This document shows positions 27,998-51,438 of a stretch of 64,000 bases of DNA, piece by piece; the stretch's first letter is position 1, and each line of letters starts with the position of its first letter. The stretch is taken from positions 1,259 to 65,258 of IMG/VR virus record IMGVR_UViG_3300034012_000625; one strand, 5' to 3'. The translations under genes and the position numbers were made by a program. Under the pieces are notes generated by a model. That model was not told the origin of the DNA. It worked only from the letters and a program-made list of their open reading frames with translations, and did not search any database. Source of the stretch: a virus (Duplodnaviria; Caudoviricetes).

Positions 27998-28006
27998 GAG
28001 AACTAG

Positions 28007-28771
28007 ATGGCAAAACTCTATATTGCAACACCGATGTACGGCGGTCAGTGCTTCGGCTATTTCGCCCAGTCTGTCATGACCTTGCAGAACAACCTGCGAG
28101 ACAACCGCGTGGACATGGCCTGTAGCTTCCTGTTCAACGAGTCCCTGATCCAGCGCGCGCGTAACGCACTGGTCCACGGGTTCCTGAAGACAGACTTCAC
28201 CCACATGATGTTCATCGACGCAGACATCCACTTCAATCCTGCCGATGTCCTGCCTATGTTGCTAGCCGACAAGCCGGTGATCTGCGGTATCTATCCCAAG
28301 AAAGAGATCAACTGGAATCAAGTCCACGCAGCAGCAGTAGCCGGCGTTCCTCCGCAAGACCTGCGCAAGTACAGCGGCTCCTTCGTGGTCAACCTGATCG
28401 ACTACCAGAACGAGCAGCGCGTAGAACTGGATAAGCCGGTAGAGATCTGGAACGGTGGTACTGGCTTCATGATGATCAAGCGTGAGGTGTTCGAGCAGCT
28501 AAAAGATCATGTGCCGTCGTACATCAATGACACCAATGATCTGGGTGGCAACATTGGCAACGAGCGTATCCATGAGTTCTTTGCCACCAGCATCGAGCCA
28601 TTGGGTGAGCGTCTGCTGTCTGAGGATTACCACTTCTGCAAGATCTGGCGTGACAAGTGCGGCGGCTCCGTCTGGGCAGCACCATGGGCGCAGCTCTCAC
28701 ATATCGGTACCCACAAGTTCGACGGCATCCTGACAGAGAAGCCACAACCCCCTCAATCTCAAGAGGTGTAA
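28007..28771 (+). CDS. GT-A glycosyltransferase-like protein (paralog of 22844-23608)
   Basis: 'IATPMYGG', 'ESLIQRARN', 'MFIDADI', 'GTGFMMI', 'LSEDYHFC'. Confidence 0.75.
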   Translation: MAKLYIATPMYGGQCFGYFAQSVMTLQNNLRDNRVDMACSFLFNESLIQRARNALVHGFLKTDFTHMMFIDADIHFNPADVLPMLLADKPVICGIYPKKEINWNQVHAAAVAGVPPQDLRKYSGSFVVNLIDYQNEQRVELDKPVEIWNGGTGFMMIKREVFEQLKDHVPSYINDTNDLGGNIGNERIHEFFATSIEPLGERLLSEDYHFCKIWRDKCGGSVWAAPWAQLSHIGTHKFDGILTEKPQPPQSQEV

Positions 28772-30004: not shown

Positions 30005-31782
30005 AGGTATCTGACTACATTTGCTCAAGGATCAAAGAGCTAACTGGTACAGATACTGTCTTCCTACTGTCCGGCGGTGGCATGATGCACCTGCTGGACA
30101 GCGTCGGGAAGACCGATGGCCTGCGCTACATGCACTTGCATCATGAGCAGTCCTGCGGGTTTGCAGCCTATGCCTATGGCAGAGCTGTGAACTCGACAGG
30201 TGTTCTGTTTGTAACCAGCGGCCCCGGCGGCACCAATGCCATCACGGCTGTCGCCTCTGCATTTACAGACAGCGTACCCATGCTGATCATCTCCGGCAAC
30301 ATCACACAGACGTTCTCTGCCCATGGCCTGAACCTGCGCATACGAGGCTTCCAAGAGCTAGACATCATCGAAGTAGTCAAGCCGATTACCAAGTATGCCA
30401 AGTTCATCAGCTCGGCTGCCGATGTGAAGTTGGAGTTGGAGAAGGCTGTGTCCATGGCAAAGGACGGCCGCCCTGGACCTGTGTGGCTGGACATTCCGCT
30501 GGACGTGCAGTGTGCCGACATCACGCCGGACACACTCGCAGGTTACAAAGGATTCAGTTCTAACGCAGCACCGACGAAGGATCTGATCAAGGACATCCGG
30601 CAACGCCTGCAATCAGCCAAGCGTCCGCTGATCCTGTTCGGCAACGGTGTGTTCACCAGCGGTGGCAAGGATGCAGCCAAGCAGTTGGCATCAGCCTTTA
30701 CCGTGCCTGTGCAGACAACATGGGGTGCGGTTGATCTGATCCCTGACAGTCATCCTAATTACTTCGGGCGGTCGAACTCTTTCGGTCCACGCTACCCCAA
30801 CATCATCATCCAGAACGCCGACTACATCCTGTCTATCGGGGCGCGTCTGGGTGTCCAGCACACCAGCCACAACATCGAGACGTTTGCCAGAGGTGCATTC
30901 GTTGACATGATTGACCTTGATCCGGCAGAGGCTAGCAAGCCGGGGCTGAATGTCGGCAGGCACTCACGGGTCTGCGCCAAGAAGCTGATAGACGCACTAC
31001 TGGATGAGCAGCCTGTCTCTGCATCACAAGAGTGGCTAGGCTACTGCCGCAAGGTCAAGGAGAAGTTCCCTGCCGGTGCAACGTTCAAGGACGTGCGGGA
31101 TGAGCAGTACGTCAATCCGTACTACTTCTACCAAGAGCTAGGCAGGCAACTACCAGAGGATGCTGTTCTCACGCCGACAGGATCAGGACAGGCTTTTATC
31201 ATCGGCCATCAAGTGCTGGAGATAAAAAAGAACACTCGGATGTTTGGTGCCAAGAACTTGGCCATGATGGGATCCTGCCTGCCGTCTGCTATCGGCGCGC
31301 ACATGGCTACCAACAAGCGGGTCATCTGCGTGACAGGCGACGGCGGCATCCAGCTCAACCTGCAAGAACTAGCCATCATCAAGCACAATGATCTGCCTAT
31401 CAAGATCTTCGTGTTCAACAACGCTGGCTATCACGCCATAAGGATTACGCAGGAGAAGTACTTCGACAGCCGGTACGTAGGATCTACCGAAGACACCGGC
31501 GTATACATCCCGTCGTTCTCCAACGTTGCTCAATGCTACGGCCTGAAGTACAGGAAGCTGCACAACAATATTCAGGTGGCAACGCTGATCGACAGCGTAC
31601 TGAGCAACGATGATCCTGAGATCATAGAAGTCATCATGGATCCGCATAAGCCAACCACGCCAACAATCGGATCGTTCATGCGGGAAGATGGCACGATGTC
31701 ATCCAGACCGCTGGAAGATATGGCGCCGCTGCTAGACAGAGAAGAACTACGCAGTCTGATGTACATAGACTTGATGGAATAG
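30001..31782 (+). CDS. Thiamine-diphosphate enzyme of the acetolactate synthase family (YerE-like)
   Basis: 'HHEQ', 'TSGPGGTNA', 'GRPGPVWLDIP', 'GDGG...NN', C-terminal 'PLEDMAP'; directly after rfbH. Confidence 0.85.
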   Translation: MKVSDYICSRIKELTGTDTVFLLSGGGMMHLLDSVGKTDGLRYMHLHHEQSCGFAAYAYGRAVNSTGVLFVTSGPGGTNAITAVASAFTDSVPMLIISGNITQTFSAHGLNLRIRGFQELDIIEVVKPITKYAKFISSAADVKLELEKAVSMAKDGRPGPVWLDIPLDVQCADITPDTLAGYKGFSSNAAPTKDLIKDIRQRLQSAKRPLILFGNGVFTSGGKDAAKQLASAFTVPVQTTWGAVDLIPDSHPNYFGRSNSFGPRYPNIIIQNADYILSIGARLGVQHTSHNIETFARGAFVDMIDLDPAEASKPGLNVGRHSRVCAKKLIDALLDEQPVSASQEWLGYCRKVKEKFPAGATFKDVRDEQYVNPYYFYQELGRQLPEDAVLTPTGSGQAFIIGHQVLEIKKNTRMFGAKNLAMMGSCLPSAIGAHMATNKRVICVTGDGGIQLNLQELAIIKHNDLPIKIFVFNNAGYHAIRITQEKYFDSRYVGSTEDTGVYIPSFSNVAQCYGLKYRKLHNNIQVATLIDSVLSNDDPEIIEVIMDPHKPTTPTIGSFMREDGTMSSRPLEDMAPLLDREELRSLMYIDLME

Positions 31783-31790
31783 GGGAGAAC

Positions 31791-32693
31791 ATGAAGATTG
31801 CAATACTCGGGGCTACCAGCGAGATAGCCAAGGATCTGATTCTGTCTTTTGAAGGAGCAGACCTACACCTGTTTGCCCGCAACAAGCTGGCGCTGGATCA
31901 CTGGATGGTGGAAAACAACAAGAGATATCCCACCAGATTCTTGTCTGACTTCTCGCGGCATCATGAGTTTGACGCCATCATCAACTTCATCGGTGCCGGT
32001 AGCCCAGAGCGTATCCAGCAGATGGGTAGCAACATCTCCTACGTCACAGGGTTCTATGACCTGATGGTGTTGGACTATCTGGAGCAGCACAAGAACTGCC
32101 AGTACATCTTCATCTCCAGCGGCGCGGTGTTCGGGGATAACTTTGAGACGCCAGCCAACGCACAGAAGATGTCATCCTTTCCTATCAACGACATCCAGCC
32201 GCACCACTACTACGGCATTGCAAAGGCGCAGGCAGAGTATCGTCATCGGCTGTCTGACAGAAACATCATCGACCTACGTGTGTTCAGCTACTACAGCAGC
32301 ACCATGAATCCTGATCACCAGTTCATGGTCAGCCAGATGGTGCAGGCGGTCATGCGAGATGAAACATTCAGAGCAGACATGAACCGTCTATCCCGCGACT
32401 ACATCGGACCCAAGGACTTCTATCAGATGATCCAAGTCTTGCTGAGAAACAACACGGTCAATCAGGCGGTGGACTGCTACAGCAGAGCGCCCGTGACAAA
32501 AGAGAAACTGCTGGATGGGATGTGGAAGCGGTATGGCATGAAGTATGTGGTGAGCGCCGGATCTCCGTACCATCCTACGGCAGTCAAGCCGTGCTACTAC
32601 TCCACCAATACGGCAGCGTACGCGCTGGGTTATCGGCCAACGATAACATCCCTTGAGTCCATCTTTGAAGAAGCTGACAAGTTGCTAAAGTGA
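31791..32693 (+). CDS. NAD-dependent epimerase/reductase (SDR; YerF-like by context)
   Basis: 'ILGATSEIA', 'ISSGAV', 'YGIAK'. Confidence 0.75.
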   Translation: MKIAILGATSEIAKDLILSFEGADLHLFARNKLALDHWMVENNKRYPTRFLSDFSRHHEFDAIINFIGAGSPERIQQMGSNISYVTGFYDLMVLDYLEQHKNCQYIFISSGAVFGDNFETPANAQKMSSFPINDIQPHHYYGIAKAQAEYRHRLSDRNIIDLRVFSYYSSTMNPDHQFMVSQMVQAVMRDETFRADMNRLSRDYIGPKDFYQMIQVLLRNNTVNQAVDCYSRAPVTKEKLLDGMWKRYGMKYVVSAGSPYHPTAVKPCYYSTNTAAYALGYRPTITSLESIFEEADKLLK

Positions 32694-33020: not shown

Positions 33021-33291
33021 GGAGTATATGAACGAAGTAGCAGAGGTAGGCTGCGTCCTTTGCCATCATCTTGGCTACGGTCACACGCCTGCTCACCTGC
33101 ATCATCCACGCGACGCGGCTGGAGGAGCGCAGCGAGCGTCAGATTGGCTCGTGATCCCCCTGTGTCCAGAACACCACCAGGGAGCGTCAGGCTATCATGG
33201 GCTGGGAAGCAGAGGGTTCTATACACGGTACAAGCTCACAGAGTGGGACTTGATGGCCATGACTATTGAGAGGTTGCATAAGTCTTCTTGA
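33007..33291 (+). CDS. Ref/DUF968-like HNH nuclease
   Basis: GCVLC...LHH...IPLCPEHH...GYH. Confidence 0.75.
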   Translation: MKTLKEYMNEVAEVGCVLCHHLGYGHTPAHLHHPRDAAGGAQRASDWLVIPLCPEHHQGASGYHGLGSRGFYTRYKLTEWDLMAMTIERLHKSS

Positions 33292-36200
33292 CCTCTATCC
33301 GCGCTTCTTCCATCTGCTTTGCCAGCTCGCCGATCAGTACCTTTATCCGATCAGTCTCTTCTTTCTTCTGAGCGCCGGTCATGTTCTCGTCGTTGCGGAT
33401 AGCTATGATTACCTGACGCATCTTGGCCATGTCTTTGGAAGCGTTGTCGTAGAACTTGGCCATCGCAATCTTGTCGCCCTTCTCCTTCAAGATCTCCTGC
33501 ACCTTGTCCGCCTGACCTAGCTGCGCGAAGTGCCGCATGTCAGCGTATGCCTGGCTGATCTCTTTGTTGTTCTCGTAGAACGCCGTGACGTACTTGGACT
33601 GCGTGGCAGGCAACGTCTTGATGAAGCCCATAGACATGGTCTCTGTCCAGTTGGCATCTGGGTAGGCAGACTTGGAGAACGGCATCACAGCATAGTGCGA
33701 CGTTGCAGAGATGGTACCGCCTAGCCAGCCAAGATATCCCTTGATCGCGTAGTCTGTTTGTACCGGAGATACTTCCATCGACTCTGGCAGGAATACGTTT
33801 GCCACTTGCGATAGACCGATGGCCAGCGGGCTGGTTCTCTCCGCTATGCGCTCTGCTTTCGACAGACGCTCCATGCCCGCAGTCTCGATCGGCGCGCCAG
33901 TGAAGCTGTCCTTGTTGGCGTACAGATCTACCAATGGCTTAAAGACCTGCGGCATTGGGTTGATCGCAAAAGTGTCCGTCAGCATACGGCTGATTGACTG
34001 CCCGAATACTTTACCCTCTGCGCCCTGATCAATAATCTGCTCAAGCACACGCTCGGCCAGCGTACCCATCGCGCCAATCTCAAATGGCTTGGGTATACGG
34101 ACGGCGGCATCCATACCAGGAAGCCTGAACCACCAGAAGTTATCGCGGTCCCACTGCTCCCGCTTCTTGAACTCTTCGTCATCTTTGAATGCCATGTACA
34201 GCATCAGGGATGCCAGCACGACAGCGCCCATCACGACGCTGAACTGCTCTGCCCGCTGCTTGTCTGTGGCTTCAATCGGCTTGCCTGTGGCCGTGTTGTA
34301 AATTACCCGGCTAGTTGGAATGATGCCATCCCTGCCCAACTTGTACAGACCCTGCACACGCGCATTCAAGAATGGAACTACCTGCGTCAGCAAGCGGAAG
34401 GCAGGCCATGAGCCTTGCATGGAGAAGTCCAGCATGTCTCTGGCGTAGAACGATGCTTCCAAGTGTGTGTAGTTCTTTTTCGTCTCTGGATTAACCGTCT
34501 CTCTAAGCTGCTTGTACAGCGCCATACGGTTAGCAGATTCCGACTTGTTGCCCAGTTCCTGATATGCCCGCCACGCCTTGCCGATACCAGCTTGAATCTT
34601 CTTCTCGTTATCTAGGATGTTCTCACCCTTGATGCCGCTGTCCAGCAGGCGCTTGATTAACTTGGCCTGATCGCCCTCATATGCGGAGCCGAAGTTGAAG
34701 ATCGCTCCACCTGCAAGCGCAGAGATGTGCGCAGGATTATTGCGGTCAGATGCTGCCCAGCCTTCAATGACGTTGGCAAACGGGTTCTTCTTCAGATCCG
34801 TCACAGCGATAGCCGAGATCGAATCACGGAACAAGTTACGAATCTTGAACGCCGGGGACAGCGTGACACCAAACTGGAGCAGATTCTTGAAGTCGCGAGC
34901 AACATCAACAAACTTGGACTTCGGCCCCATGTAGCCGATCGACATGATGGATTCCAGCAGCATAGGATCCACGATGTCAAAGTACGCAGGCTTGCCGTCA
35001 ATCATGGTCTTGATCATGCCCTTGCCGCTGGTGGTGTACTCTGGCTTTAGCTTGCCGTCGCCAATCAACTCACCTGACTTGCTGCTGTAGACCTTGCCAT
35101 CACGCCATTCCAGACCGACCTTCAGGTTGGGGAATGCACCACCCAGATCCATAGTTGCCCGCACGGTAGCGTTGGCGGCCTCGTTCTTCATGGACGCAGA
35201 CAGGATGTGACTCCAGTTGCGCAGGGTGTTCTCCATCAAGTCGCCGAACGGTTTCTCACCACCCTTCAACGCCTTCGAGAAGTACTGGTTCACCAGCCCT
35301 GACTTGGTGGCCGCAGCCTGCACGTCACCACCTTCATCCATCACCTTGTAGAACGGGATGTAGTTAATGTCGTTGGCATATATGTCATAGGCTTCTCTAT
35401 TGATTAGCCCTTGCTTGAGCGCGATGTTCAGCACAGAGCGGTTCAGCCTGTTCATATCCTTCTGAACTTGCTGGTATACCTCGAGCCGTGACTTACCATC
35501 AATCTTGCCAGCAGACAGTTGATCCCGTTTTGCCACAACATCGGGATTAATCGACGTGCCCTTGATGGATGAGCGCAGATTTGTGATCTCTTTTTTAATC
35601 TGCTCTATCTGATCATTGATCTTATTGGCTTCTCTGGCTGTGCCAGCTGCTTTGCGCTCGGCAGTCAGTCGTTGGATCTCAAGCTTTAAGCTATCAATCT
35701 GGCTTTCAGCCCGGCGCGACTTTTCATAGATAGCGTTTTCTCTGTTGAGCGCCACCCATATCTGGTACCGATCCACCTCCATGCCGACCGGCTCCAACGC
35801 TTTCAGTAGACCCTTCGTGTCCTTGGCAATATCCAATGCGCCGTCAGTTAGTTTGACCTCACCATTAAACAGGATGCCCTCTAGCGCGCCGTCGATAGTC
35901 TTCGACATGCGGGCTTTCATGTAGGCTTCTTCGCTGATATCTTTGATTGAGCGGTACTGGTCAGCCACACCTTGCGCCAGCTTCATGAAAAAGCCGTCAC
36001 GCATCCCATCTATCTTGTCGATGATGGTTTTGTTTTGCGGGGCAAATATTGGCTCAAGCGCGTTGTACAGATCATCCGGCACACCATCAAACTGACTCTT
36101 CTTCAGGGTGCGTTTCTGCAACGCCTTCTGTGCAGCGGCCTTGGCTTTCTGTGCGGGGGTAGGAGGTTCTTCTTTCTCCGCTAACTCAAACTTCCGGCCA

Positions 36201-39200
36201 GCAGCACGGTACATCGTGTCGATGTCTTGAATGGGTGTAGACAGAACTTCTTCCGACAGAGCTACCAGTCGCTCAAGCGCACTTTGCTGGCTCTTGTTGA
36301 TGCCAAGCAGCTTGCGGATAGCTTCGACGAACACCTTAAATCCGTTCGAGCGCTTGTACTCAATACCAGCCAGGTACTTTTGTATTTCAATTTCAACCAT
36401 GCCATACGCAACAAGCTCATCAATGTTGGCAAGCATTTGTCTTGTGTTTAATTTCTCTGGCACTGGCCTGCCCGCAGCCCGATCCTCCCTCACTTTTTTC
36501 ATGATGAACTTGCGAAGGATTTCTAGGTCGGCTACCGGCCCACCTCTTACATTGCGAGTCTGTCTTGTAATAAAGAGCTGCCCCATGGTCGCCAGATGAA
36601 GCATCTCGTGCAGCAGCGTCCTGTAGTTTGTGCCGACTACCTTTTCTGGCTGACCAGGGACATTAGGACCGTTGACTCTTACGTCGTACTTTGGACTCTG
36701 GCCTGGACCAACAGGAAGCGGCGTTACCGTGCCGTAAGTATTCTTGCGGCGGAATCTGCCTTTGATGACCCCGAAACTCATTTGAATTCCGCGATCATTC
36801 ATAAGCTTGACGCGATTGCGCACAGCCTCTGCCACGGTTTTGGCAAAGTTATTGGGTGCGTTCTTCACCAACCAGTTGGATAGCTGTACTACATCCATGC
36901 CGTCAACCTCTTGAGCTATCTGCTCCAAAGGCTTTTCGATCGTGTACGTTTGCTGATCCGGTGGGGTCGGCGGTTCTTGTGGCGGCTTGGGTGTCGTTGG
37001 TTTCTTGGGCGGTCTAGGCTCTGTGCGTAAGACACCAAATACGTTTTCCAGCGGTGTAGCTACAGCTACATTGCCAAACATGTCTGGCTCTGCCGTTGCC
37101 TGCTGTGCTGCTTTATTGGCTTCTGCCGCAAGCTCAATCAGAGAATCGCCGATTCTGCGTGGCGCGTTCTTGTTGGCGGCAAACATGCTGACTACCTCTC
37201 GAGTCAGCGGGTCCATGTCTATGTCACCTTGATCTATGTACTCACCTAGATCTTTGCCCTGCCGGCGCGCATTGACCGCCAACTCAGCAGCCTTGGTTAC
37301 ATAGTTACGAACATCGTAGTCACCGGCGTTCTGAAGATTGGACATCGCAGGAGCTGCTATGGACATGCCGCGCAGTATCTGTAGCGCCTCTGGATCAGTG
37401 GTTTCTGCATACAGGTCTATCAGCGCATCATTCTCATAAGCGCGGGCGAACAGCGCGTTTGCCAGACGAGTTTGTGCGAGCGGTGTAGGTTGCCCCTGAC
37501 GGTTCATAAGTTGCGCTTGCTCTTCTTTAGGCATCGCAGCAACAAACTGACGCAAAGAAGAAATCGTAGGGCTACCATCTGTAAGGAAATCAATTCCTTG
37601 CAGATCAAACCTGCCCATGTCGATCTTCGCCTGCTCCGTCGGTGACATGCCCAGCTGCCCACCGACATTACTCTTGTCGGCAATGTCAGGCGTCAATGAT
37701 GACTTGGGCATGATCCGAACAAGGACGGGCTGCTCCATAGCATCGATTACGCTTGATTCGATGCCATGCGCTTGATCCTCTAACATACTACGCACGTAGT
37801 CGGTGTATGGCCCGCTGCGATACAGCTCTTGCAGCCCAGCTATACGCCCGTTACCAGCAACCGGTCTAATACCTTCAAATGCTGGATCAGCGTACTGCTG
37901 GACGGTCGTGCCATCAGCGCGATTGCTTGGCGTGATTTCACGCGCATCTAGCACTGCGTATTGCACAGGAATCTTGGTGCCGTCAGACGCAGACACAACA
38001 TCAACGCGACCCAATTGATTTTCATCAATCTGTACATCACTAATAACCACAGGCGCACCCGCACCAAAATCTCTGGACACAGACAGGCGGTTGTAGTCCG
38101 GCTGCCGAGCGATGCTCATCATCTGCTGGATAGATGCTGGCTTGGTGCGATCACGGTTTTGGATGGCCGCAAACGACAAGCCAAAGTCCTCTGGCTTACC
38201 CTCCCAGTAGTTCTCCATCGCCTTGGTTACATCTTCCGGTGGCTCTGGCATAGGTTTCGCAGGAGGTGGCTCCGCCGGCGGGGCGACCGCTTCCACAGGC
38301 GGCACAGCAGGCGCAGGCTCTACCCGTGCAGCAGGTTGTACTGCTGGTTCTGCCGTTGGTTCTTCTGTCGGCTTGACCTCTGGTGGTGGTGCTTCTGCCC
38401 TGCGTGTCAGTCCAGCAGCAGTGCCAAGACCAAGGCCGCCTACAGCAGCCATACCCATAGTCTCGCCCACGCCTTCTGTCAGGCTGCGAGTAGGATCGAC
38501 TTTCTGCGCTTGATAGTTCTGCGCTACCTTGCCGCCACCTTCTTCGATCATCTCGCTGATAGTCTCGCCTACACCGCCCTTGGCAGCAGCAGCACCTCTA
38601 GCAGCAAGACCGCCTTTGATTGGCACCTTCGCCATGGCGCGTTCGATAGCACGGCCACCGGGCAACAGCTGTGCTGCCAGTGAGATTACCGCAGCGCTTG
38701 CGCCCGACGCACGAGCGTAGCCCAGCGCGCGGCCAGCAGCTTCAGTCTCGGACACACCTTTATCCACCATCTCTTTGTACAGCTGGACATACGTATCTGC
38801 ACCAATGTCAGCACCTTGCTGTGTGGCGCCCGTGCCTACAGCGCCAGCCACAGCAGTCCTAGCGCCAGCACCGGCTAGGCTCAAACCACGCGCAACCGCC
38901 AGACCCGGTAGCAGGTTTGGTGCTTGCTCTGCGATGAAGTTAGATAGCAGCGCAGGATCCTTGATAGTCTCCATGAAGGCGGTAACGCCCTTGGATATCT
39001 CACCTTCTTTTCCTGCTTCTTTGATCTTGGCTGCGCGCTCTGCCTCACGGCGCTTCAGCTCTTCTGACTTCATAGCCTCGCCAGTCTCGCGCATCTCGCG
39101 GCCGATTCTGGTCAGACCTGTGTCAGAGAAGTCGCCGGTAGCCAGACCGTATAACTGGCCTGGCAACTGTGTCAGTGCGCCAGCACCGGAGACTACGCCA

Positions 39201-39376
39201 GCGCCAATATCCTTGGCAGCCTCACCAAAGGTGCGTTCTTTTGGTGCGGCGGGTGATTCCACCGGCTGCGCTGCCATATTAGAGCGCAACGCGTCAGCAA
39301 GTGCTTGAGCAGCCTGCTTGTCGCCCGCTCTGTGTGCGTTGAGAAAAGCGCGTTCAAGCTCTTGTGCTGTAGCCAT
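33263..39376 (-). CDS. Large polyvalent virion/ejection protein (DdrB-like ParB, HExxH peptidase-like and LPD38-like domains)
   Basis: 2037 aa; 'QNRDR...GAPVV', 'AGNGRIAGL', 'LLHEMLH', C-terminal 'RDNFWWF...RIPKPFEIG'. Confidence 0.7.
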   Translation of the reverse strand: MATAQELERAFLNAHRAGDKQAAQALADALRSNMAAQPVESPAAPKERTFGEAAKDIGAGVVSGAGALTQLPGQLYGLATGDFSDTGLTRIGREMRETGEAMKSEELKRREAERAAKIKEAGKEGEISKGVTAFMETIKDPALLSNFIAEQAPNLLPGLAVARGLSLAGAGARTAVAGAVGTGATQQGADIGADTYVQLYKEMVDKGVSETEAAGRALGYARASGASAAVISLAAQLLPGGRAIERAMAKVPIKGGLAARGAAAAKGGVGETISEMIEEGGGKVAQNYQAQKVDPTRSLTEGVGETMGMAAVGGLGLGTAAGLTRRAEAPPPEVKPTEEPTAEPAVQPAARVEPAPAVPPVEAVAPPAEPPPAKPMPEPPEDVTKAMENYWEGKPEDFGLSFAAIQNRDRTKPASIQQMMSIARQPDYNRLSVSRDFGAGAPVVISDVQIDENQLGRVDVVSASDGTKIPVQYAVLDAREITPSNRADGTTVQQYADPAFEGIRPVAGNGRIAGLQELYRSGPYTDYVRSMLEDQAHGIESSVIDAMEQPVLVRIMPKSSLTPDIADKSNVGGQLGMSPTEQAKIDMGRFDLQGIDFLTDGSPTISSLRQFVAAMPKEEQAQLMNRQGQPTPLAQTRLANALFARAYENDALIDLYAETTDPEALQILRGMSIAAPAMSNLQNAGDYDVRNYVTKAAELAVNARRQGKDLGEYIDQGDIDMDPLTREVVSMFAANKNAPRRIGDSLIELAAEANKAAQQATAEPDMFGNVAVATPLENVFGVLRTEPRPPKKPTTPKPPQEPPTPPDQQTYTIEKPLEQIAQEVDGMDVVQLSNWLVKNAPNNFAKTVAEAVRNRVKLMNDRGIQMSFGVIKGRFRRKNTYGTVTPLPVGPGQSPKYDVRVNGPNVPGQPEKVVGTNYRTLLHEMLHLATMGQLFITRQTRNVRGGPVADLEILRKFIMKKVREDRAAGRPVPEKLNTRQMLANIDELVAYGMVEIEIQKYLAGIEYKRSNGFKVFVEAIRKLLGINKSQQSALERLVALSEEVLSTPIQDIDTMYRAAGRKFELAEKEEPPTPAQKAKAAAQKALQKRTLKKSQFDGVPDDLYNALEPIFAPQNKTIIDKIDGMRDGFFMKLAQGVADQYRSIKDISEEAYMKARMSKTIDGALEGILFNGEVKLTDGALDIAKDTKGLLKALEPVGMEVDRYQIWVALNRENAIYEKSRRAESQIDSLKLEIQRLTAERKAAGTAREANKINDQIEQIKKEITNLRSSIKGTSINPDVVAKRDQLSAGKIDGKSRLEVYQQVQKDMNRLNRSVLNIALKQGLINREAYDIYANDINYIPFYKVMDEGGDVQAAATKSGLVNQYFSKALKGGEKPFGDLMENTLRNWSHILSASMKNEAANATVRATMDLGGAFPNLKVGLEWRDGKVYSSKSGELIGDGKLKPEYTTSGKGMIKTMIDGKPAYFDIVDPMLLESIMSIGYMGPKSKFVDVARDFKNLLQFGVTLSPAFKIRNLFRDSISAIAVTDLKKNPFANVIEGWAASDRNNPAHISALAGGAIFNFGSAYEGDQAKLIKRLLDSGIKGENILDNEKKIQAGIGKAWRAYQELGNKSESANRMALYKQLRETVNPETKKNYTHLEASFYARDMLDFSMQGSWPAFRLLTQVVPFLNARVQGLYKLGRDGIIPTSRVIYNTATGKPIEATDKQRAEQFSVVMGAVVLASLMLYMAFKDDEEFKKREQWDRDNFWWFRLPGMDAAVRIPKPFEIGAMGTLAERVLEQIIDQGAEGKVFGQSISRMLTDTFAINPMPQVFKPLVDLYANKDSFTGAPIETAGMERLSKAERIAERTSPLAIGLSQVANVFLPESMEVSPVQTDYAIKGYLGWLGGTISATSHYAVMPFSKSAYPDANWTETMSMGFIKTLPATQSKYVTAFYENNKEISQAYADMRHFAQLGQADKVQEILKEKGDKIAMAKFYDNASKDMAKMRQVIIAIRNDENMTGAQKKEETDRIKVLIGELAKQMEEARIEVKKTYATSQ

Positions 39377-40789
39377 TTATTTTCCGCCGTACTGTTGCAG
39401 GGCTTTCTGTGCTTCTGGACTTAATTGATATGCCGAGGCGCCGGTTGTTGATGGCCGACCAATCTGCCCTTGCAGTCTGCGAGTTTCTTCTTCCACGGCT
39501 GCTTTATATGCATTTGGATCACGCAAACTCATGGCAAAGTTCATATCAACTTGCGCTCGCTTGGATATGTTGTCAGCCGCCTTGTCCGCCAAAGTTGCTG
39601 CATTGACGCTAGGGCCGCCTTTAACGACGCCAACAGCCTCGGCAAGCGTGGCATTTGGATTGGTCTTGCGCATGTCTGCCAAGACTCGTTCTGCCAGTTG
39701 ACTGGTCTCGCCCATTCCGGCTCTTGCAAACGCACCGCTCTGCTGCAACTTTTCAACATCAAGCCTAGTCTGGGATTCAAGCTGGGCAATCGCCATGCGA
39801 TACGCCTTTTCTTCGTTGACCTTCCACACATCCATGTTTAATTTTGTAAGATCGCCAACAGTTTTGTTGTACTGATCAACAGACTTGATTTCTATATCAC
39901 GCAGTTCTTTGAGCTTGGCGTCGTAACGATCTTGTGCCTTAGAAGATTGATCACGCTTGAGTTGGTTCTCTGCCAACGTTAGTTGACGCTCGGCCTTTCT
40001 GATATCGTTTTCTGTCTCTCTGATATCTTTCAGGGCTGCGCCATACTGCATGACGCCCTGTCTGCCGACTGTAGACAGAACCTCAAACTCTTCGCCCTGT
40101 CGAGCGCCAAGCAAACCAAAGCCCGCCATGATTAGGGCGTTACCAAACGCCTGATCTTTGCGCCCTTTCAATTCCTCGCGTCGCGTTTTTTCTTCCTCGC
40201 GCATCTGCCTGAACATAGCCGCGTCATCCAGCCCAGCTTGTTTTTGCGCCTCACGCAATAAATCAAACTCACCCTTGAGAGAAGGCTCTGGACGGGTTGG
40301 GTAATCTCGCAATCTCACGCCGCCCATGCCAGCTTCTTTCGGGAAAGCCAAGCCTTGCAAATCACTTTGTGCTGGTCGTGCTGGTGGTTCTTCTTGCGGC
40401 ATAGCCTCTGGCAGAGAAGCCAGACCTCGGCGTAGCGTATCGCTTGCAGATACCAGCTCTCCGTCTGCATAGCCCGGCACATCTCCGCCTTCAGCAAATG
40501 CTACAAGACCACCGCCCGCCATTTCTTCTGGCAAGCCCGAAGGTAGCGCCGTCATACCTGCCGATGCCTGCTGCGGCATGGCTTGTTGTGGCGCAGGTTG
40601 ACCCAGCACTTCATCTGCCACGGTCTGCTGCGGCATCTGCATGTTCTGCTTCTGGATGCGGTCGATCATCATCCCGGCCATCACAGCCTTGGTCGGATCT
40701 ATCAGACCCCTCTGCGCCATCTGCTGCAACTGTGTCTTGCTGTACTTAGTTGCCAGCGACTGTATCTCTTGAATGCCGGGGATAGCCAT
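39377..40789 (-). CDS. Internal virion/ejection protein
   Basis: Gln/Ala-rich, coiled coil, 'MAGGGLVAFAEGG'. Confidence 0.6.
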   Translation of the reverse strand: MAIPGIQEIQSLATKYSKTQLQQMAQRGLIDPTKAVMAGMMIDRIQKQNMQMPQQTVADEVLGQPAPQQAMPQQASAGMTALPSGLPEEMAGGGLVAFAEGGDVPGYADGELVSASDTLRRGLASLPEAMPQEEPPARPAQSDLQGLAFPKEAGMGGVRLRDYPTRPEPSLKGEFDLLREAQKQAGLDDAAMFRQMREEEKTRREELKGRKDQAFGNALIMAGFGLLGARQGEEFEVLSTVGRQGVMQYGAALKDIRETENDIRKAERQLTLAENQLKRDQSSKAQDRYDAKLKELRDIEIKSVDQYNKTVGDLTKLNMDVWKVNEEKAYRMAIAQLESQTRLDVEKLQQSGAFARAGMGETSQLAERVLADMRKTNPNATLAEAVGVVKGGPSVNAATLADKAADNISKRAQVDMNFAMSLRDPNAYKAAVEEETRRLQGQIGRPSTTGASAYQLSPEAQKALQQYGGK

Positions 40790-40790
40790 C

Positions 40791-41831
40791 TTACGACTCC
40801 GTCATGTTGTGCAGACCCAAGCCCATCAGGCCGCCTTTAGCGCCAAAGATCGGCAAGCCTTGATTTGCTCTGCTGCCTGCATAAATACCTGCCAAACCAG
40901 TTAGCTGCGCCCCTAGCGACGGCGGTGCTTTGTAAAGGCTTTCCGTTGATTGCATCGGCATACCACGCGCCATCTCCATGATGAACTGCGCCTGCTGATA
41001 GGGGAACTGCTTCTGCCGTAGGAAGTCTTGGTAATCCTGTTCGTACTTCTTCTGCTGCAACGCCTGACGCTCTGCGCCCGCTGCTGCCTGCAAGCCGACA
41101 ATATCCTTGGCCTGACCGAACTGTAGTTGACCTAACTGGCCTAGCTGTTGCGCACCCTGCAACGCCGACTGCAAGCCAAGCTGTGACGCCTGTAGACGAC
41201 GTGCTTGCTCAGACTGGAACTGCTGTGCTGCCTGTTCGTACGCTGCCTGACCGCCTCTAGCCTGGATGTCACCCATCTGCTGCGCCAGATTACGCTGGGC
41301 TTCTGCTTCCATGATGGCCTGACGCGAGCCGCCAAACGCACCCGCGCGAGAGGCTTGGAAGCCACGCTGCGTACGTGCGATGTCTGCCTGACGCTGTGCT
41401 TCACGCTTGCCTATGTCCACCACGTTCTGCATGTACGGCGACATGTAGGACTGTGCCATGCCGGGATCTGTAAAGGATCCACCAGCCAAGAGAGATGGGT
41501 TGTAGATGCCCGCTAGGCCAGCTTGTCCTGCGCCGCCAGCCATCTGGGCAGCCGGGTTCACATACGGAGATACCGCTAGGTTGGCCGTTGCCTGCTGTGC
41601 TTGCAGCTGCATAGGGTCAAAGCCCGCTATACGCTGGTACTGATATGGCTGGTACTGCTGCTGTGCTAGGCCGGCAGATTCTGCCAATACTTGGTTGACC
41701 AACGGCTGGACTTCCGGCGCGTAGGACAGCGCCGTCTGCGTCATAGCACTGGGAGCGCCTCCGCCATCACCACCGCCCATGCTGAACGTAAACCAAGAAG
41801 GGTTGAACAACCATTTCAAAAAGTTAAACAT
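40791..41831 (-). CDS. Internal virion/ejection (DNA pilot-like) protein
   Basis: Gln-rich, 'YMSPYMQNV', 'GAFGGSR'. Confidence 0.65.
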   Translation of the reverse strand: MFNFLKWLFNPSWFTFSMGGGDGGGAPSAMTQTALSYAPEVQPLVNQVLAESAGLAQQQYQPYQYQRIAGFDPMQLQAQQATANLAVSPYVNPAAQMAGGAGQAGLAGIYNPSLLAGGSFTDPGMAQSYMSPYMQNVVDIGKREAQRQADIARTQRGFQASRAGAFGGSRQAIMEAEAQRNLAQQMGDIQARGGQAAYEQAAQQFQSEQARRLQASQLGLQSALQGAQQLGQLGQLQFGQAKDIVGLQAAAGAERQALQQKKYEQDYQDFLRQKQFPYQQAQFIMEMARGMPMQSTESLYKAPPSLGAQLTGLAGIYAGSRANQGLPIFGAKGGLMGLGLHNMTES

Positions 41832-42270
41832 TTAGATGCTCCTTGCGGTAATTGTCGTACCGCTCAACCATGATCTGTTTCCACACTTCAGGCATGTAGT
41901 TTGCTGCTTGTTCGGGGCCAACACAAATATGCACGGCGTAGGTAATGATGTTGCCAACCGCATACCGCAAGCCGTGCGCTATTTCAATGCCATGCTCGTC
42001 CTTCGTTCTTTCGTAGTGATTGGCCGTCTGATACGCCGACACTACCGCGATCCACATGGGCAAGATCGCATACTGTATTGCTTGGTAAAACTTGTTCATC
42101 GGCAGGTAGACCAGACAGATCATGAACGCGTTGTTGATCTTCTGTTCGGACACATCCTTGTCCTTGTCTACCAAATCATCCCAAGTGTGCGCCAAGTCAA
42201 TAAACATCCGATACATGGCGAGCGCATCTTCGTTGCCACCAAACCACTCTAGCTTGCCTTCTAGGTTCAT
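41824..42270 (-). CDS. Helical protein with an isoprenoid-synthase-like DDxxD motif
   Basis: 'LAHTWDDLVDKD'; looks all-helical; coupled to both neighbours. Confidence 0.55.
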   Translation of the reverse strand: MNLEGKLEWFGGNEDALAMYRMFIDLAHTWDDLVDKDKDVSEQKINNAFMICLVYLPMNKFYQAIQYAILPMWIAVVSAYQTANHYERTKDEHGIEIAHGLRYAVGNIITYAVHICVGPEQAANYMPEVWKQIMVERYDNYRKEHLNV

Positions 42271-45200
42271 GCGGGCAGGTACTTCTCTGCCTTGCTGTTA
42301 ACCGCTACCTTCTGCTTGCCCACCGACTTCTTGCGGGCGCGCTGGATTCTGTCCATCATCGCGTACAGCTTGCGGGCGCCAGCATCTGTGGAACCGTTGC
42401 CAAGCTCTGACACGATACGTGCAGGGATTACAAACTCGCCATCAGCAAGACGAGCAGGCTGACGCTCGCCAATGACAGCAGGGATAGAATCAGAAACTCC
42501 ATCTCCCGGTCCTTTCAATAGTCTGCCGCCGTCAGAATAACCGCCCAGATTGGCTATGCCACCACCAGCCATGCGCACAGTTTCACCCGATTCTTTTGCA
42601 CCTTGAAAAAACTTGGCCATTTCTGCGGAATCAATATTGTTATCGCGACCAAACTCATTGATCCAGTAATTAAATCCTGCCATGTCTGGCGTGCGGCCTA
42701 GATTCTGCTCGTACAATTTGTATAACTGCTCGCGGGCAAGATTATTTGCTTTGCCTGTAGTTGGATCTGTACCGTACAAGAACGGTGCTTTTGCCTGCAA
42801 TGCAGCAGCCTCTGTCTGTGTCATGCGGCTGCCCATCTGGTTTGGATCAAACCCACGATAGCCAGCGTTGGCCATGTCCACTTCTTTTTTCAAGCCAGCA
42901 ACCAGCCGGTCTTTGATTGGATCTAACCCGCCTGCCTTGCCTATCTCGCTCATGTAGTACTCAAGGCCGGGAATATCTGGATCACGCCCACCCGCCTCGC
43001 GGTACAACGCTGTCAGCGCTTTCTTGTCCGCAAGTTCAGTTGCTGAGTTATTCATGAACAACTCTGCTTCTTTCGAATCAATGATGTTGTCCGCGCCGAT
43101 AGTCTTCATGTAGTAGTCAAACCCTGGCGCATCTGGGATACGTCCAAGCTTGGTCAGATACAGCTCTGTCAAGTCAGCTCGCGCCTTCTCGTTCGGGCCA
43201 GTCTGATACTGTCTTATGAGTGCGTTCTCTTCGGGCTTGTTCTCGAAGTAGTTGTACTGGTACGCGCCCGGTGCTGTAGATATTTCACGCTGCCCCGGAG
43301 CTGTAGGCGTAGTCGGGGTGGTCGGCGTAGTCGGAGTGGTCGGTGTAGTTGGTGTAGTCGGAGTTGTTGGCGTTGTGCCACCCGCAATACCGCCAGAAGG
43401 CGCTGTGGCCGACATCTTCGGCATCGGCAAACCTGGAACAACAGGGCCGGAATAGCCGTACTGTGCAGGGTTATACGCAACGCCGCCTTCAATCATTGCT
43501 CTGCCAGATTCGTCATACACCATCTTTGGCACCAGAGGCTTGGCCAAGTTGGTGAAGAACTCTGGCGAGTATTCCAGCGTCTTTTCTAGTGCCGACGGCG
43601 CCATAGGGCTGGTGCGCGAGTAGTACTCCAGCCCCGGCAAGTCTACCTGTCGGCCAAGCACACGCTCGTAGATATCTGCTACCTGACTTGGCGATGCTGC
43701 CGATGTCTGCCCGCCGGATGTAGGCGCTTTACTGCCAAGACGGAAACTTGTATTTGCAAACGGCGACTCTACGGCTGTCGCTTTTTCTTCGCTAGTACCG
43801 GTTTTTCCATAACCAAAAGCATCTGGAATGCCGCCGCCGTAATACAGCGCACCTTGTGGAATGTTGACTGTGCCGGAAGTTGACTGTGCAGCTGGAGCAG
43901 CAGCTTGTTGTGTGACAGTAGTTGCCCCACCGCCTGTATTTGCTGTGCTGCCTCCGCCGGTTGCCGCTTTACTTGCAGCAAAAGATTTTGCTTCTGGCGA
44001 ATTCATAATCTCTGCCAACATTTGTTGATTGGTCATTGCTCTACCATCAACTGTCGACTGCGAATAAAAAGCCAACCCTTGCGGATCTGGCGCACGCCCT
44101 AGATATTGTTGAAATGCTGCTTCAATAGCGCCACCCTCGGCCAGCTGCTGTTCTCCTGTGTACGGATCTACACGCGCCTCGCCCGCAGGACGAATGACGT
44201 TCTCAGAGATAGGGCGCTGTGCTGGTGTTGCGTACTTCTGCGACATCTGGTTTGCCATCGGGTACATGGTGTTTGCACCGACTGCATTCATCCGTGACAT
44301 CTGCTCTACCGTGCCGCCATCTGCCAATGACATCAGGCCGCCGCCCGCTGCGTACACTTCTCCTGTCGGCGTGAACCGTGCGTTCGGGAAGTAGTTGCGC
44401 TCAGATGTACCAGCCACACCCATAGGCTGCGGATCGTACTCGTATCTCAGAATATCAAGAGGCTCGCCGGGCTTTTGCTGTGGGAACTTGCGCGGTGATT
44501 GTGATGCGCCATACAAACTTGTTGCTAGTGCCGCAGACTCGTATGGATTGTCTTTGACAAACTGCATGAGCTTTTTGGGATCGGTAGCAATATCCTTCAG
44601 GCCACGTCCCATGGCAGACAGCTGACCGGTAAAGGTATTTGGTGCTGCCGCTGTTTTTGCTAGGCCTTGCAGACCAGCCATGCCGCCGGCAGCAGGGTCG
44701 GTGGCGGCTCGCAACACAGCATCTCTGGTAGTTGTTGCAGCCGCTGTAATTGGTGCAGCACCAACGCTTCCCGCCATGCCTTGCAACGCTGGCTCAGTCG
44801 CTGCGCGCAAAGCTGCTGGTGCGCCAGTTGCTGCTTGAGCAAGTATGGACTGACCCGATGCTGGAATAAATGCATTACCTGCCAAACCTTGTAGTGCAGG
44901 TTCCGTTGCCGCACGTAACGCTGCGGGAATTGCTGATCCGGCAGCTGACCCTCCAGCGCCCGCTGCTGCGGCACCCGCCGCCGCTCCACCTGCTAGCGCA
45001 CCACCCAATCCAGCACCACCATACGCACCAAGACCTGCCATCAAACCTTTGCTCAGACTGCCGGTAGCTAACGTACCAACAGCCGCCGTGGTGAGCGCTG
45101 CTTGCATAGCTGTCATGCCCGCAGCCTTCAACCCGATACCCGCGATTGTTGGCAGGATGGCTGCAAGGAAGAATGCTTCTGGCAATCCCGTTTCTGGGTT

Positions 45201-45335
45201 GATTGTCAGGCTGCCGCCGTGCGCCATGGCCAGCGATTGCAAGCCTTTGACCTCATCCGGGGACATGTGAACAAGGACAGAATCGCCGCGTCTACCAGCG
45301 CCCTGAAGATGTTGGGCTAAATTATGGAGGCTCAT
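42267..45335 (-). CDS. Virion protein with five DUF4214-like (LGRxxD.xG..Y) repeats
   Basis: N-terminal 'GRRGDSVLVH...INPETGLPEA', five LGR.PD-like repeats, (TPT)n tract, C-terminal 'GPGDGVSDSIPA...LADGEFVIPA'. Confidence 0.65.
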   Translation of the reverse strand: MSLHNLAQHLQGAGRRGDSVLVHMSPDEVKGLQSLAMAHGGSLTINPETGLPEAFFLAAILPTIAGIGLKAAGMTAMQAALTTAAVGTLATGSLSKGLMAGLGAYGGAGLGGALAGGAAAGAAAAGAGGSAAGSAIPAALRAATEPALQGLAGNAFIPASGQSILAQAATGAPAALRAATEPALQGMAGSVGAAPITAAATTTRDAVLRAATDPAAGGMAGLQGLAKTAAAPNTFTGQLSAMGRGLKDIATDPKKLMQFVKDNPYESAALATSLYGASQSPRKFPQQKPGEPLDILRYEYDPQPMGVAGTSERNYFPNARFTPTGEVYAAGGGLMSLADGGTVEQMSRMNAVGANTMYPMANQMSQKYATPAQRPISENVIRPAGEARVDPYTGEQQLAEGGAIEAAFQQYLGRAPDPQGLAFYSQSTVDGRAMTNQQMLAEIMNSPEAKSFAASKAATGGGSTANTGGGATTVTQQAAAPAAQSTSGTVNIPQGALYYGGGIPDAFGYGKTGTSEEKATAVESPFANTSFRLGSKAPTSGGQTSAASPSQVADIYERVLGRQVDLPGLEYYSRTSPMAPSALEKTLEYSPEFFTNLAKPLVPKMVYDESGRAMIEGGVAYNPAQYGYSGPVVPGLPMPKMSATAPSGGIAGGTTPTTPTTPTTPTTPTTPTTPTTPTAPGQREISTAPGAYQYNYFENKPEENALIRQYQTGPNEKARADLTELYLTKLGRIPDAPGFDYYMKTIGADNIIDSKEAELFMNNSATELADKKALTALYREAGGRDPDIPGLEYYMSEIGKAGGLDPIKDRLVAGLKKEVDMANAGYRGFDPNQMGSRMTQTEAAALQAKAPFLYGTDPTTGKANNLAREQLYKLYEQNLGRTPDMAGFNYWINEFGRDNNIDSAEMAKFFQGAKESGETVRMAGGGIANLGGYSDGGRLLKGPGDGVSDSIPAVIGERQPARLADGEFVIPARIVSELGNGSTDAGARKLYAMMDRIQRARKKSVGKQKVAVNSKAEKYLPA
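43302..43376 (-). repeat. Imperfect 9-bp tandem repeat encoding (TTP)~8
   Basis: TTPTTPTTPTTPTTPTTPTTPTTPT in the 1022-aa protein. Confidence 0.8.
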
Positions 45336-50210: not shown

Positions 50211-50576
50211 TTACGCGGCTTCCTGTGCTACCCACGAAGTTGTTGCTTCATCCCAGCTGTACATCTGGCCGTCAGTAGGCATATCTACCGGCGCCTTCCA
50301 CTGGCAGGTAGCCTCGTCCAATACCCAGCTTGCATACGTCTTGGGCGGAATAAACGCATCACGCTGCTCGTCATAGGTGAAGCCGATACCAGCGTAGTTC
50401 TTGCGCTTGTTGCCGTTGTAGCTGGTCTGCTTCCACGTACCGCCAAACAGCTTCTCGCAGAACGCTGCGCCAATGTATTCCTTCTCCACGCCGTTAGCGT
50501 CCGCTGTGTCGCGGTTGTCAACGACGATCACTTGTTCGACCACGTTGCCGGGGCCAAGTTTCGCAAAGTGCGCCAT
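50211..50576 (-). CDS. Tail-fibre-associated protein (MAHFA family)
   Basis: 'MAHFAK...WKQTSYN...RKNYAGIG.TYD...DAFIPP'. Confidence 0.65.
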   Translation of the reverse strand: MAHFAKLGPGNVVEQVIVVDNRDTADANGVEKEYIGAAFCEKLFGGTWKQTSYNGNKRKNYAGIGFTYDEQRDAFIPPKTYASWVLDEATCQWKAPVDMPTDGQMYSWDEATTSWVAQEAA

Positions 50577-51184
50577 CAATCTTCTCCTAGTTGCAGTCCA
50601 GTCAAACTCTCATCGACACCGATGTGTCCTTTGAGAAAAGTGTTAAACGCGATGCTCACGCGGGTTTCATTCCCGACCTTCGTCTCGACCATGTGTTCCA
50701 GATGCGACGGGAACAAAATCAGATCCCCCGCGCCTACCTCGAACCACCAGCTCTCCGAGTTCCAGTGATTCCATGTGGCCGGTTGTACTTTGATCCGCTC
50801 GTAGCCGCTCTTGTAGAAATAGATCTTGTCCACTTCTCTGTCAGCCTGCGGGTAGAACACGCCAGAGATGAAGCTATTCGGATGCGCGTGCTTGTGGTGG
50901 TACTGACCTGGATCTGTGTAGTTCGCCCACGACTGCGTGACATACAGCGCCACATCACCCTTGGGGTCATGTACCGTCTTGAAGTATTCCACCATCGCGT
51001 CTTCGATAAACTCACGGATGTCCGTCAGTTCTTTGTTGCGCAGAATCTTGCGATCATTGCTAGTCGTATTGCCTACGTTAGCGTGCTTGTCTTGGCCGAG
51101 GATGAACTCAAGTTCTGTCTTTGTCAGGTCGCGCCCAAGTCGAGCAAATCCAACAGGTAGCGGGAATAGGTTGTGGACGTTCAT
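50576..51184 (-). CDS. 2OG-Fe(II) oxygenase (TIGR02466-like)
   Basis: 'SWAN', 'HAHPNSFISGVFY', 'LFPSHLEHMV', 'RVSIAFN'. Start at MNVHNLFP. Confidence 0.85.
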   Translation of the reverse strand: MNVHNLFPLPVGFARLGRDLTKTELEFILGQDKHANVGNTTSNDRKILRNKELTDIREFIEDAMVEYFKTVHDPKGDVALYVTQSWANYTDPGQYHHKHAHPNSFISGVFYPQADREVDKIYFYKSGYERIKVQPATWNHWNSESWWFEVGAGDLILFPSHLEHMVETKVGNETRVSIAFNTFLKGHIGVDESLTGLQLGED

Positions 51185-51438
51185 CCGTTCACCGCCTGTT
51201 CGTAGACACGCTGTTGTCCAGTAATCTGTTCCAACTGCTCTTCTGTGAAGATCGTGTTGATGCTGTCCTCGAACGCGCGGATTTTCTCCATGGTCTCGTG
51301 GACTTCTTCTATGGTTGGGCAAGGACGTGGGTCATCCCACAAGCTGAAGAAATTGTTCGTGATCTCCCAGCGCGCACCCGGACGTAGCAGGTGCATTGCT
51401 GTGTCGATGCCAACCATCATGTAAATTTTGTTGTCCAT
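51181..51438 (-). CDS. Small tail-module protein
   Basis: 'LRPGARWE...W.DPRPCPT.EE'. Confidence 0.55.
   Translation of the reverse strand: MDNKIYMMVGIDTAMHLLRPGARWEITNNFFSLWDDPRPCPTIEEVHETMEKIRAFEDSINTIFTEEQLEQITGQQRVYEQAVNG

Follow-up and report, generated by a model that had tools for sequence, protein, structure and literature searches.

A 148-aa protein, given the working name gpX, is encoded directly before the first ejection gene of a Caudoviricetes genome and may be an enzyme-like maturation factor working on the ejection proteins or together with them. The gene lies in a 64,000-nucleotide stretch (the window) of IMG/VR record IMGVR_UViG_3300034012_000625, a 65,258-bp virus genome with direct terminal repeats that is rated complete; the window (positions 1,259 to 65,258) covers nearly all of it. 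We tentatively propose that gpX binds Mg2+ and diphosphate through a first aspartate-rich motif (FARM) and no second one, on a cut-down prenyltransferase scaffold. The proposal, which we regard as possible rather than established, draws on the conserved polar residues, an enrichment of related folds, the register of the FARM, the precedent of ComQ, the observed coupling to the ejection gene, and the enzymes that adjoin or are fused to gpX in relatives. The features that carry the argument are as follows.

41824..42270, minus strand: gpX, 148 aa, all-helical, phrog_21390; an open reading frame (ORF) in the slot of T7 gp13 and P22 gp14
42160..42183, minus strand: FARM-like motif W30-D-D-L-V-D-K-D37, rich in aspartate, where helix 14-35 reaches its C-terminal end
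42010..42012, minus strand: codon of E87, at least 90% conserved
41965..41967, minus strand: codon of R102 in the AHxLRY segment, invariant in the 92-sequence alignment
40791..41831, minus strand: first ejection protein, 346 aa, with a gp7/gp14-like role (phrog_4287 'DNA ejection protein', E 1.7e-12)
41839..41844, minus strand: Shine-Dalgarno sequence AAGGAG, 7 nt before the ATG of the ejection gene
41824..41831, minus strand: 8-nt overlap ATGTTTAA of the gpX stop and the ejection-gene start
41778..41831, minus strand: 18-residue aromatic leader MFNFLKWLFNPSWFTFSM of the 346-aa protein
41757..41777, minus strand: glycine run GGGDGGG after the leader

gpX is matched by the profile of phrog_21390, an uncharacterised phage family (E 8.8e-23, residues 7-132 on positions 14-138 of 153). 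A 90%-clustered database holds 1148 relatives of about its length, and there are 627 representative clusters at 50% identity, 211 of them at E<=1e-10; the family belongs to a very large, mostly uncultured group of phages. The sole cultured phage with a homologue is Achromobacter phage CF418P1 (33.6% identity), whose gene order matches that of the window (157, 395, 591 and 2684 aa, then lysis genes) and on which no literature was found. Conservation was read from alignment A1, which comprises gpX and 91 of 150 listed representatives (92 sequences, 25-52% identical to gpX); its rows were hand-picked so that the match covers the greater part of gpX, with fusions, partial matches and fragments excluded. 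D31, D35 and R102 are invariant in A1, whilst M1, A16, W30, D32, D37, N59 and E87 are at least 90% conserved, giving the consensus WDDLIDxDK ... LPxNxFY ... ANxxE ... AHxLRY. In gpX itself the motif stands in the context ...DLAH-T-W-DDLVD-KDKD, and the aspartates of a FARM are present, two invariant (D31, D35) and two at 90% or above (D32, D37). A DDxxD sequence is by itself not rare, being found in 4 of the 50 large ORFs of the window, so that the one in gpX goes beyond chance because it is conserved across the family and not because the motif is uncommon. The original prediction, made from the letters of this DNA, had described a 148-aa helical protein with W-DDLVD overlapping an ejection-like gene and had named conservation of the aspartates as a test. 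The first is borne out by the ORFs, the 8-nt overlap and the AlphaFold2 model, and D31 and D35 have indeed proved invariant. Judged from sequence, the conserved residues point to a metal- or ligand-binding site and not to a packing surface, and R102 and E87 likely belong to the same polar site as the aspartate cluster.

The AlphaFold2 model of gpX built on A1 has eight helices, with a predicted local distance difference test score of 97.0 and a predicted template modelling score (pTM) of 0.88. Like the trans-isoprenyl diphosphate synthases of PF00348 (the farnesyl, geranylgeranyl, hexaprenyl and octaprenyl diphosphate synthases FPPS, GGPPS, HexPPS and OPPS), it is an all-helical bundle in which DDxxD ends a long helix. 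In a VIA-align comparison with 48,161 representatives of the Protein Data Bank (PDB), 41 of the 50 best rows are prenyltransferase or terpene-type by title, a count to be read with the caveat that helical models often score so through a common arrangement; the method is independent of Foldseek. The titles cover trans-prenyl diphosphate synthases, prenyltransferase domains, MoeN5, terpene synthases and squalene synthase (with 'PbSS' counted as one), and the other nine rows are one UbiA homologue and eight unrelated proteins. Heptaprenyl diphosphate synthase entries provide the best match and rank 4 (5h9d chain D and 9kp1 chain A). In a protein-language-model atlas, three of the four nearest named clusters are terpenoid-related, at weak scores of 0.76-0.77: PF00348 polyprenyl_synt (21% of one cluster), PF07307 HEPPP_synt_1 (21% of another) and DUF2600, which we take to be a terpene-synthase family.

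The register of the motif was compared by hhalign with a reference profile of 11 trans-prenyltransferases, namely E. coli IspA and ten plasmid-borne synthases taken from 60 listed matches out of 325 records. Residues 17-53 of gpX align with IspA 70-109, and WDDL--VDKD falls over the FARM HDDLPAMDDD (score 19.5, P 0.032, probability 1.6%); the score lies above all 40 column-shuffled controls, whose maximum is 17.5. This register agrees with the ranges of the structural matches, yet the alignment is weak and its score comes mostly from the motif itself. An alignment of A1 with IspA alone had placed the motif on the SARM, the second of the motifs rich in aspartate, at a probability of 0.2% and was superseded by the 11-sequence profile.

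gpX is translationally coupled to the first ejection gene, and close spacing of the two genes is common to the relatives. The context sample comprises 177 related viral loci with 136 distinct gpX sequences; some loci were fished with WDDLID peptide patterns and are uninformative on conservation of the motif, whilst being unbiased for context. Of these loci, 131 extend for 500 nt or more past gpX, and in 129 of them an ejection-type ORF starts between -35 and +4 nt from the gpX end (116 closed ORFs of at least 100 aa and 13 running off the locus end). The commonest offset is -8 (49 loci), followed by -17 (19) and -4 (14). No downstream partner ORF was found in two of the 131 (L028, L066).

The 346-aa partner in the window begins MFNFLKWLFNPSWFTFSMGGGDGGG; it has no Cys and only two Trp, W7 and W13, both in the leader, and a tblastn search with it gave only two partial matches. 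The 113 distinct partner N-termini of the relatives vary. A leader of 10-40 residues followed by a glycine run is found in 72, six have fewer than 10 residues before the run, and 35 have no glycine run in their first 60 residues (16 begin MP[DSN], five begin MC, MGC or MGxM, and 14 are of other kinds); the MP[DSN] class has a Gly/Ala-rich helix in its place. Of the 72 leaders, 28 contain Trp and 44 do not (in the closer set, 22 of 54 contain it), and the leader class MLIPNKFNGYSRDGRRLYHF-GGGG lacks it entirely. gpX is kept where the partner leader is three to five residues long or missing. With Trp confined to 28 of 72 leaders and the N-termini divided among at least five classes, the leader holds no conserved acceptor, and neither it nor its Trp residues are the conserved target. 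A Sec signal peptide was considered for the leader and rejected by eye, the MLIPNKFNGYSRDGRRLYHF class not being hydrophobic. A complex prediction of gpX (on A1) with residues 1-60 of the ejection protein (on a second alignment, A2) scored 0.00 in two runs without controls and is uninformative. As a separate observation, the first residues of the downstream ejection-type protein are MC..., MCC... or MGC... (MCGGGGGQ and MGCMSTEV being examples) in some distant gpX loci, namely L102, L135, L160, L178, L185 and L001:5844-7031; such an N-terminal Cys or Gly-Cys recalls acylation motifs and could be chance.

A small gene directly upstream of the first ejection or internal-core gene is also found in P22 and T7, and gpX holds the same position. 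P22 gene 14, whose 151-aa product is called 'virion stability factor' (DUF2824; phrog_651 'head morphogenesis'), directly precedes gene 7, the ejection proteins of this phage being the products of genes 7, 20 (471 aa) and 16. T7 gene 13 (PF11090, phrog_308) precedes genes 14-16. Both T7 gp13 and P22 gp14 resemble gpX in size (~140-150 aa) and in lying immediately before the ejection or internal-core genes. In Pelagibacter phage HTVC034P, in which a 1229-aa protein is homologous to the C-terminus of the 2037-aa protein of the window (E 2e-24), the same slot holds a 151-aa 'putative acetyltransferase' that matches phrog_308 (E 1.3e-6) and is weakly like P22 gp14 (pairwise E 0.002) and archaeal N-alpha-acetyltransferases (E 0.03-0.9). 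The acetyltransferase-like fold class of this protein differs from the all-helical gpX. hhalign probabilities of gpX are 0.6% with P22 gp14 and 0.3% with T7 gp13, with no Pfam match in either case; the conserved slot is thus filled here by a protein that is not homologous to theirs.

P22 gp7 offers a guide to the partner. It has a 20-residue leader followed by KGGKGG, the layout seen in the window, and the P22 record states that the host protease OpdA removes the N-terminal 20 residues. According to PMC8402733, gp7 without these residues keeps ~60% of the burst, and Edman sequencing gives KGGKG as the mature N-terminus. By analogy, the leader in the window is probably a removable and dispensable propeptide, in which case a lipid attached to it would not stay with the mature protein.

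These observations bear on the original prediction that gpX works as ComQ does, prenylating a leader Trp or the N-terminal Gly of the ejection protein so that a lipid would anchor it for insertion into the membrane as DNA is delivered. Such a role has some points in its favour. The FARM-like motif is conserved, the fold matches are prenyltransferase-like, and both Trp of the partner in the window lie in its leader. ComQ and PalQ are, as is proposed for gpX, enzymes of the isoprenoid-synthase superfamily that act on a peptide. The ComQ gene adjoins that of its substrate, and for gpX the adjacency is found in 129 of 131 loci; a conserved Trp or other nucleophile is not. ComQ itself prenylates its peptide with a FARM and no SARM, as given in PMC10853753. 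ComQ and PalQ are, on the other hand, full-length enzymes with a conserved Trp acceptor, whereas gpX is half their size and its partners have no such Trp. The 44 of 72 leaders without Trp, the 35 of 113 partners without a glycine run, the six with fewer than 10 residues before it, the partner of CF418P1 that starts MGCMSTEV, and the propeptide analogy (host removal of the leader, with ~60% of the burst kept on its deletion in P22) together make ComQ-like prenylation of a Trp or the N-terminal Gly very unlikely, and prenylation as such is rated as low. The description of a Trp-rich leader holds for the protein in the window and fails for the family, and the proposal of Trp or N-terminal Gly as the lipid acceptor is not sustained.

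The gene upstream of gpX in relatives is usually tail-fibre-like and enzymes are exceptions, yet these recur. A small ORF (135-151 aa) resembling Gcn5-related N-acetyltransferases (GNATs) lies just upstream of gpX in six of the 177 loci; five of these built the search model and L105 is new. They are homologous to the C-terminal domain of a gpX fusion, P0204 (BLAST E 1.1e-10 to the L060 ORF). The nearest atlas cluster to this domain (0.97) is 'putative GNAT family N-acetyltransferase' and its ten best named atlas matches all fall in the GNAT clan, whilst BLAST shows no similarity to P22 gp14 or the pelagiphage protein. A class I S-adenosylmethionine (SAM) methyltransferase (Pfam Methyltransf_23/11 above cut-off) is found just upstream of gpX in five loci, and three cluster representatives (P0234, P0237, P0274) have the same type as an N-terminal fusion partner of gpX. 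At L124:2459-2968, directly upstream of gpX and overlapping it by 4 nt, lies the gene of a 169-aa protein that belongs to phrog_10855 'hydrolase' (E 1.9e-44), contains the P-loop PRSGTTW and matches Sulfotransfer_3 weakly (E 0.0076). In some phages, then, gpX forms part of a small cassette, variable in content, of group-transfer-type enzymes that precedes the first ejection gene. The original prediction had placed a GNAT in this slot in many podoviruses and suggested testing whether homologues of gpX alternate with GNATs there. P22 gene 14 and the pelagiphage 'putative acetyltransferase' do share the slot, and GNAT-like genes do adjoin gpX; strict alternation was rejected, as they co-occur with gpX in six loci and are fused to it in P0204. 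Because both co-occurrence and fusion are seen, the relation is one of association as well as replacement.

The foremost competing explanation is a non-catalytic assembly chaperone or scaffold that binds nascent ejection proteins and keeps them soluble or off the membrane, which we consider somewhat unlikely. As is suspected for T7 gp13 and P22 gp14, gpX would, on this doubtful though serious alternative, hand the proteins to the procapsid, its acidic cluster serving as a binding surface for basic segments or a structural metal. The prenyltransferase likeness would then reflect a common helical arrangement, a view we again rate as rather less than probable. What speaks for an enzyme instead is that the invariant residues are Asp, Arg, Glu and Asn and not hydrophobic surface residues, an uncommon pattern at 25-50% identity for a protein that only chaperones. 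Repeated fusion and adjacency to methyltransferase and GNAT-like enzymes suits an enzymatic cassette better than a chaperone, and gpX has no sequence similarity to gp13 or gp14 (hhalign <1%).

Several results weigh against the tentative assignment of gpX as an enzyme-like maturation factor. These can be summarised as (i) none of the sequence methods connects the family with isoprenoid synthases: a Pfam search of gpX gave nothing at E<=1 except a chance match to DUF1422, an NCBIfam search gave chance matches only, PDB sequence searches, run with gpX alone and with A1 as a profile, had no match better than E 0.29, and the hhalign probabilities against isoprenoid synthases (0.2-1.6%) are motif-driven; (ii) Foldseek of the model found nothing in the PDB at E<=0.001 (best E 4.0) and only four uncharacterised family members in BFVD; (iii) gpX is short, 148 residues with a single DDxxD and no SARM, and the NSE/DTE motif of class I terpene synthases, (N/D)Dxx(S/T)xxxE, was not found in it; (iv) the PF00348 model has 0 matches in the whole 65,258-bp genome and matches all 14 control genomes; (v) the top structural matches include entries of two-subunit heptaprenyl synthases; (vi) no conserved acceptor residue was found in the partners; (vii) the mature N-terminus of P22 gp7 was readable by Edman sequencing and so carries no block, although the enzyme-like gp14 is encoded alongside, which argues against acylation of the gp7 N-terminus by gp14 in P22; (viii) the Pfam name for the occupant of the T7 slot is 'probable scaffold protein'.

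Because helical models commonly reach such VIA-align scores and the Foldseek searches were null, the fold evidence is read as a real but moderate enrichment in a predicted structure and as no proof of homology. The terpenoid-synthase-like fold, also named as a test in the original prediction, is favoured by 41 of 50 VIA-align rows and not by Foldseek; neither this test nor that of the aspartates refuted the prediction, and taken as a whole the earlier interpretation is partly supported. Size sets gpX apart from the reference synthases, which have ~290-330 residues (11 sequences) and, in 10 of the 11, the aspartate-rich pattern at least twice (once in L098), whereas gpX has one such motif and lies in a phage virion module. 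One longer protein matched the A1 profile, a methyltransferase fusion, and none has a prenyl-synthase domain, which is weak evidence. The idea that two half-folds might pair into a complete synthase, their aspartate motifs opposed, was followed in a tandem-duplicated relative, P0143, whose model has a pTM of 0.57 and a disordered linker at 128-156 and does not form a single synthase-like body. No PDB chain matches across both of its halves, and its N-half has no alignment depth since all 92 other rows aligned to the C-half.

The heptaprenyl synthase matches also raise the alternative that gpX is directed at the host, either as a packaged or early effector that binds or hydrolyses an isoprenoid diphosphate (undecaprenyl diphosphate, farnesyl diphosphate or octaprenyl diphosphate) or as a small-subunit mimic that docks on a host enzyme. 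The small subunits of heptaprenyl synthase act as partners of the catalytic subunit and are not known to be catalytic themselves or to have aspartate-rich motifs; 5h9d chain D is presumably one of them. The best and rank-4 structural matches, the presence of HEPPP_synt_1 among the nearest named atlas clusters, the DNA methylase or RelA/SpoT names that depositors gave to relatives of the 2037-aa protein, and the resemblance of the variable methyltransferase, GNAT-like and hydrolase neighbours to effector cassettes are all in keeping with a host target. gpX differs from 5h9d_D and 9kp1_A, however, in keeping an invariant aspartate cluster, which a small subunit would not be expected to conserve, and no catalytic partner gene (PF00348) is present in this genome. 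Nor is gpX known from virions, and an effector would not require such close coupling with the first ejection gene. A host-directed role is consequently judged improbable.

Returning to the maturation-factor proposal, gpX would be a phage-specific enzyme-like protein of ~150 residues with the fold of a cut-down trans-prenyltransferase (isoprenoid-synthase alpha), in which WDDLxDxD, E87 and R102 would form a residue set suited to hold Mg2+ and a diphosphate group. It would mature or tailor the set of ejection proteins while the virion is being assembled. The donor would be a diphosphate-activated group, with a host prenyl diphosphate as the most obvious candidate, and in some phages gpX may work beside the adjoining or fused GNAT-like and SAM-methyltransferase enzymes. 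We infer the ligand, the catalysis and the ejection proteins as target from the features set out above. The strongest form of the proposal has gpX as a minimal FARM-only enzyme, about half as large as any known member of the isoprenoid-synthase fold, that puts a host prenyl group, or some other diphosphate-activated group, on the ejection proteins within a tailoring cassette that includes GNAT-like and SAM-methyltransferase genes; this form we hold to be unlikely, at about the level of the host-directed role.

The mechanism of the small genes that precede ejection genes (T7 gene 13, P22 gene 14) is not known, and the loading, protection and deployment of ejection proteins in short-tailed phages are poorly understood. 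A large, mostly uncultured phage group fills this slot with what appears to be an invariant metal- or diphosphate-type site on a prenyltransferase-like scaffold. If gpX-type enzymes do tailor ejection proteins, phage infection would turn out to include a hidden layer of post-translational chemistry, and no smaller working version of the isoprenoid-synthase fold would be known. If the modification were lipidation, it would be the first case of a phage lipidating its own DNA-delivery proteins for entry into the host membrane; no paper was found on isoprenoid-synthase-like genes of phages or on prenylation or lipidation of phage virion proteins. Should gpX instead prove to be a chaperone, a partner for the first ejection protein would have been named.

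The minus strand of the window carries the small and large terminase subunits, the portal and the structural module, whilst a plus-strand block holds Erf, an exonuclease and sugar-modifying enzymes. A megablast search with the ejection module gave 0 matches in the phage collection, which thus holds no close cultured relative. The large genes around gpX and its partner are the following.

42267..45335, minus strand: 1022-aa DUF4214-repeat protein upstream of gpX (PF13946, E 1.4e-22, 3 stretches)
39377..40789, minus strand: second ejection-module protein, 470 aa, an ORF in the size class of P22 gp20 (471 aa)
33263..39376, minus strand: giant ejection-module protein, 2037 aa (phrog_18222, E 1.2e-157)

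The stop of the 1022-aa gene shares 4 nt (ATGA) with the gpX start. Its product also holds a PTTPTTPTT... run, and its counterparts in relatives, of 64-1162 aa, are often collagen- or fibre-like. The 470-aa protein gave no family match in profile searches. A motif of zincin type, HEMLH, occurs at residue 923 of the 2037-aa protein. Over its C-terminal 608 aa this protein has matches to giant virion proteins from 52 phage records, among whose hosts and phages are Vibrio, Bacillus, Pelagibacter, Escherichia PTXU04/Pondi and Planktothrix. Depositor names for these relatives vary from DNA methylase and RelA/SpoT to large polyvalent protein and even portal. In PTXU04 (L087) and Vibrio phage 1.232.O (L089) the giant ejection protein is present and neither gpX nor a GNAT-like gene stands before it; these phages instead encode a conserved protein of ~95-100 aa (starting MSFFGSFLDT or MSWFGSLMDT) and several low-complexity proteins. 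All four large proteins of 33263..45335 on the minus strand (1022, 346, 470 and 2037 aa) are devoid of Cys.

Elsewhere in the window, the plus-strand sugar-modifying block at 24444..32693 comprises a pair of genes resembling nucleotide-sugar epimerases, genes for an aminotransferase and a 593-aa phrog_11199 protein, and two paralogues of phrog_1574, of which one has a faint glycosyltransferase match; it is probably an auxiliary module for surface glycans or nucleotide sugars. Genes for a 2-oxoglutarate-Fe(II) oxygenase and an HNH endonuclease lie among the structural genes at 50576..51322 and 55276..55791 on the minus strand. Two adjoining paralogous tail-fibre-like genes of 565 aa each are found at 51445..53142 and 53155..54852, and both match phrog_2295.

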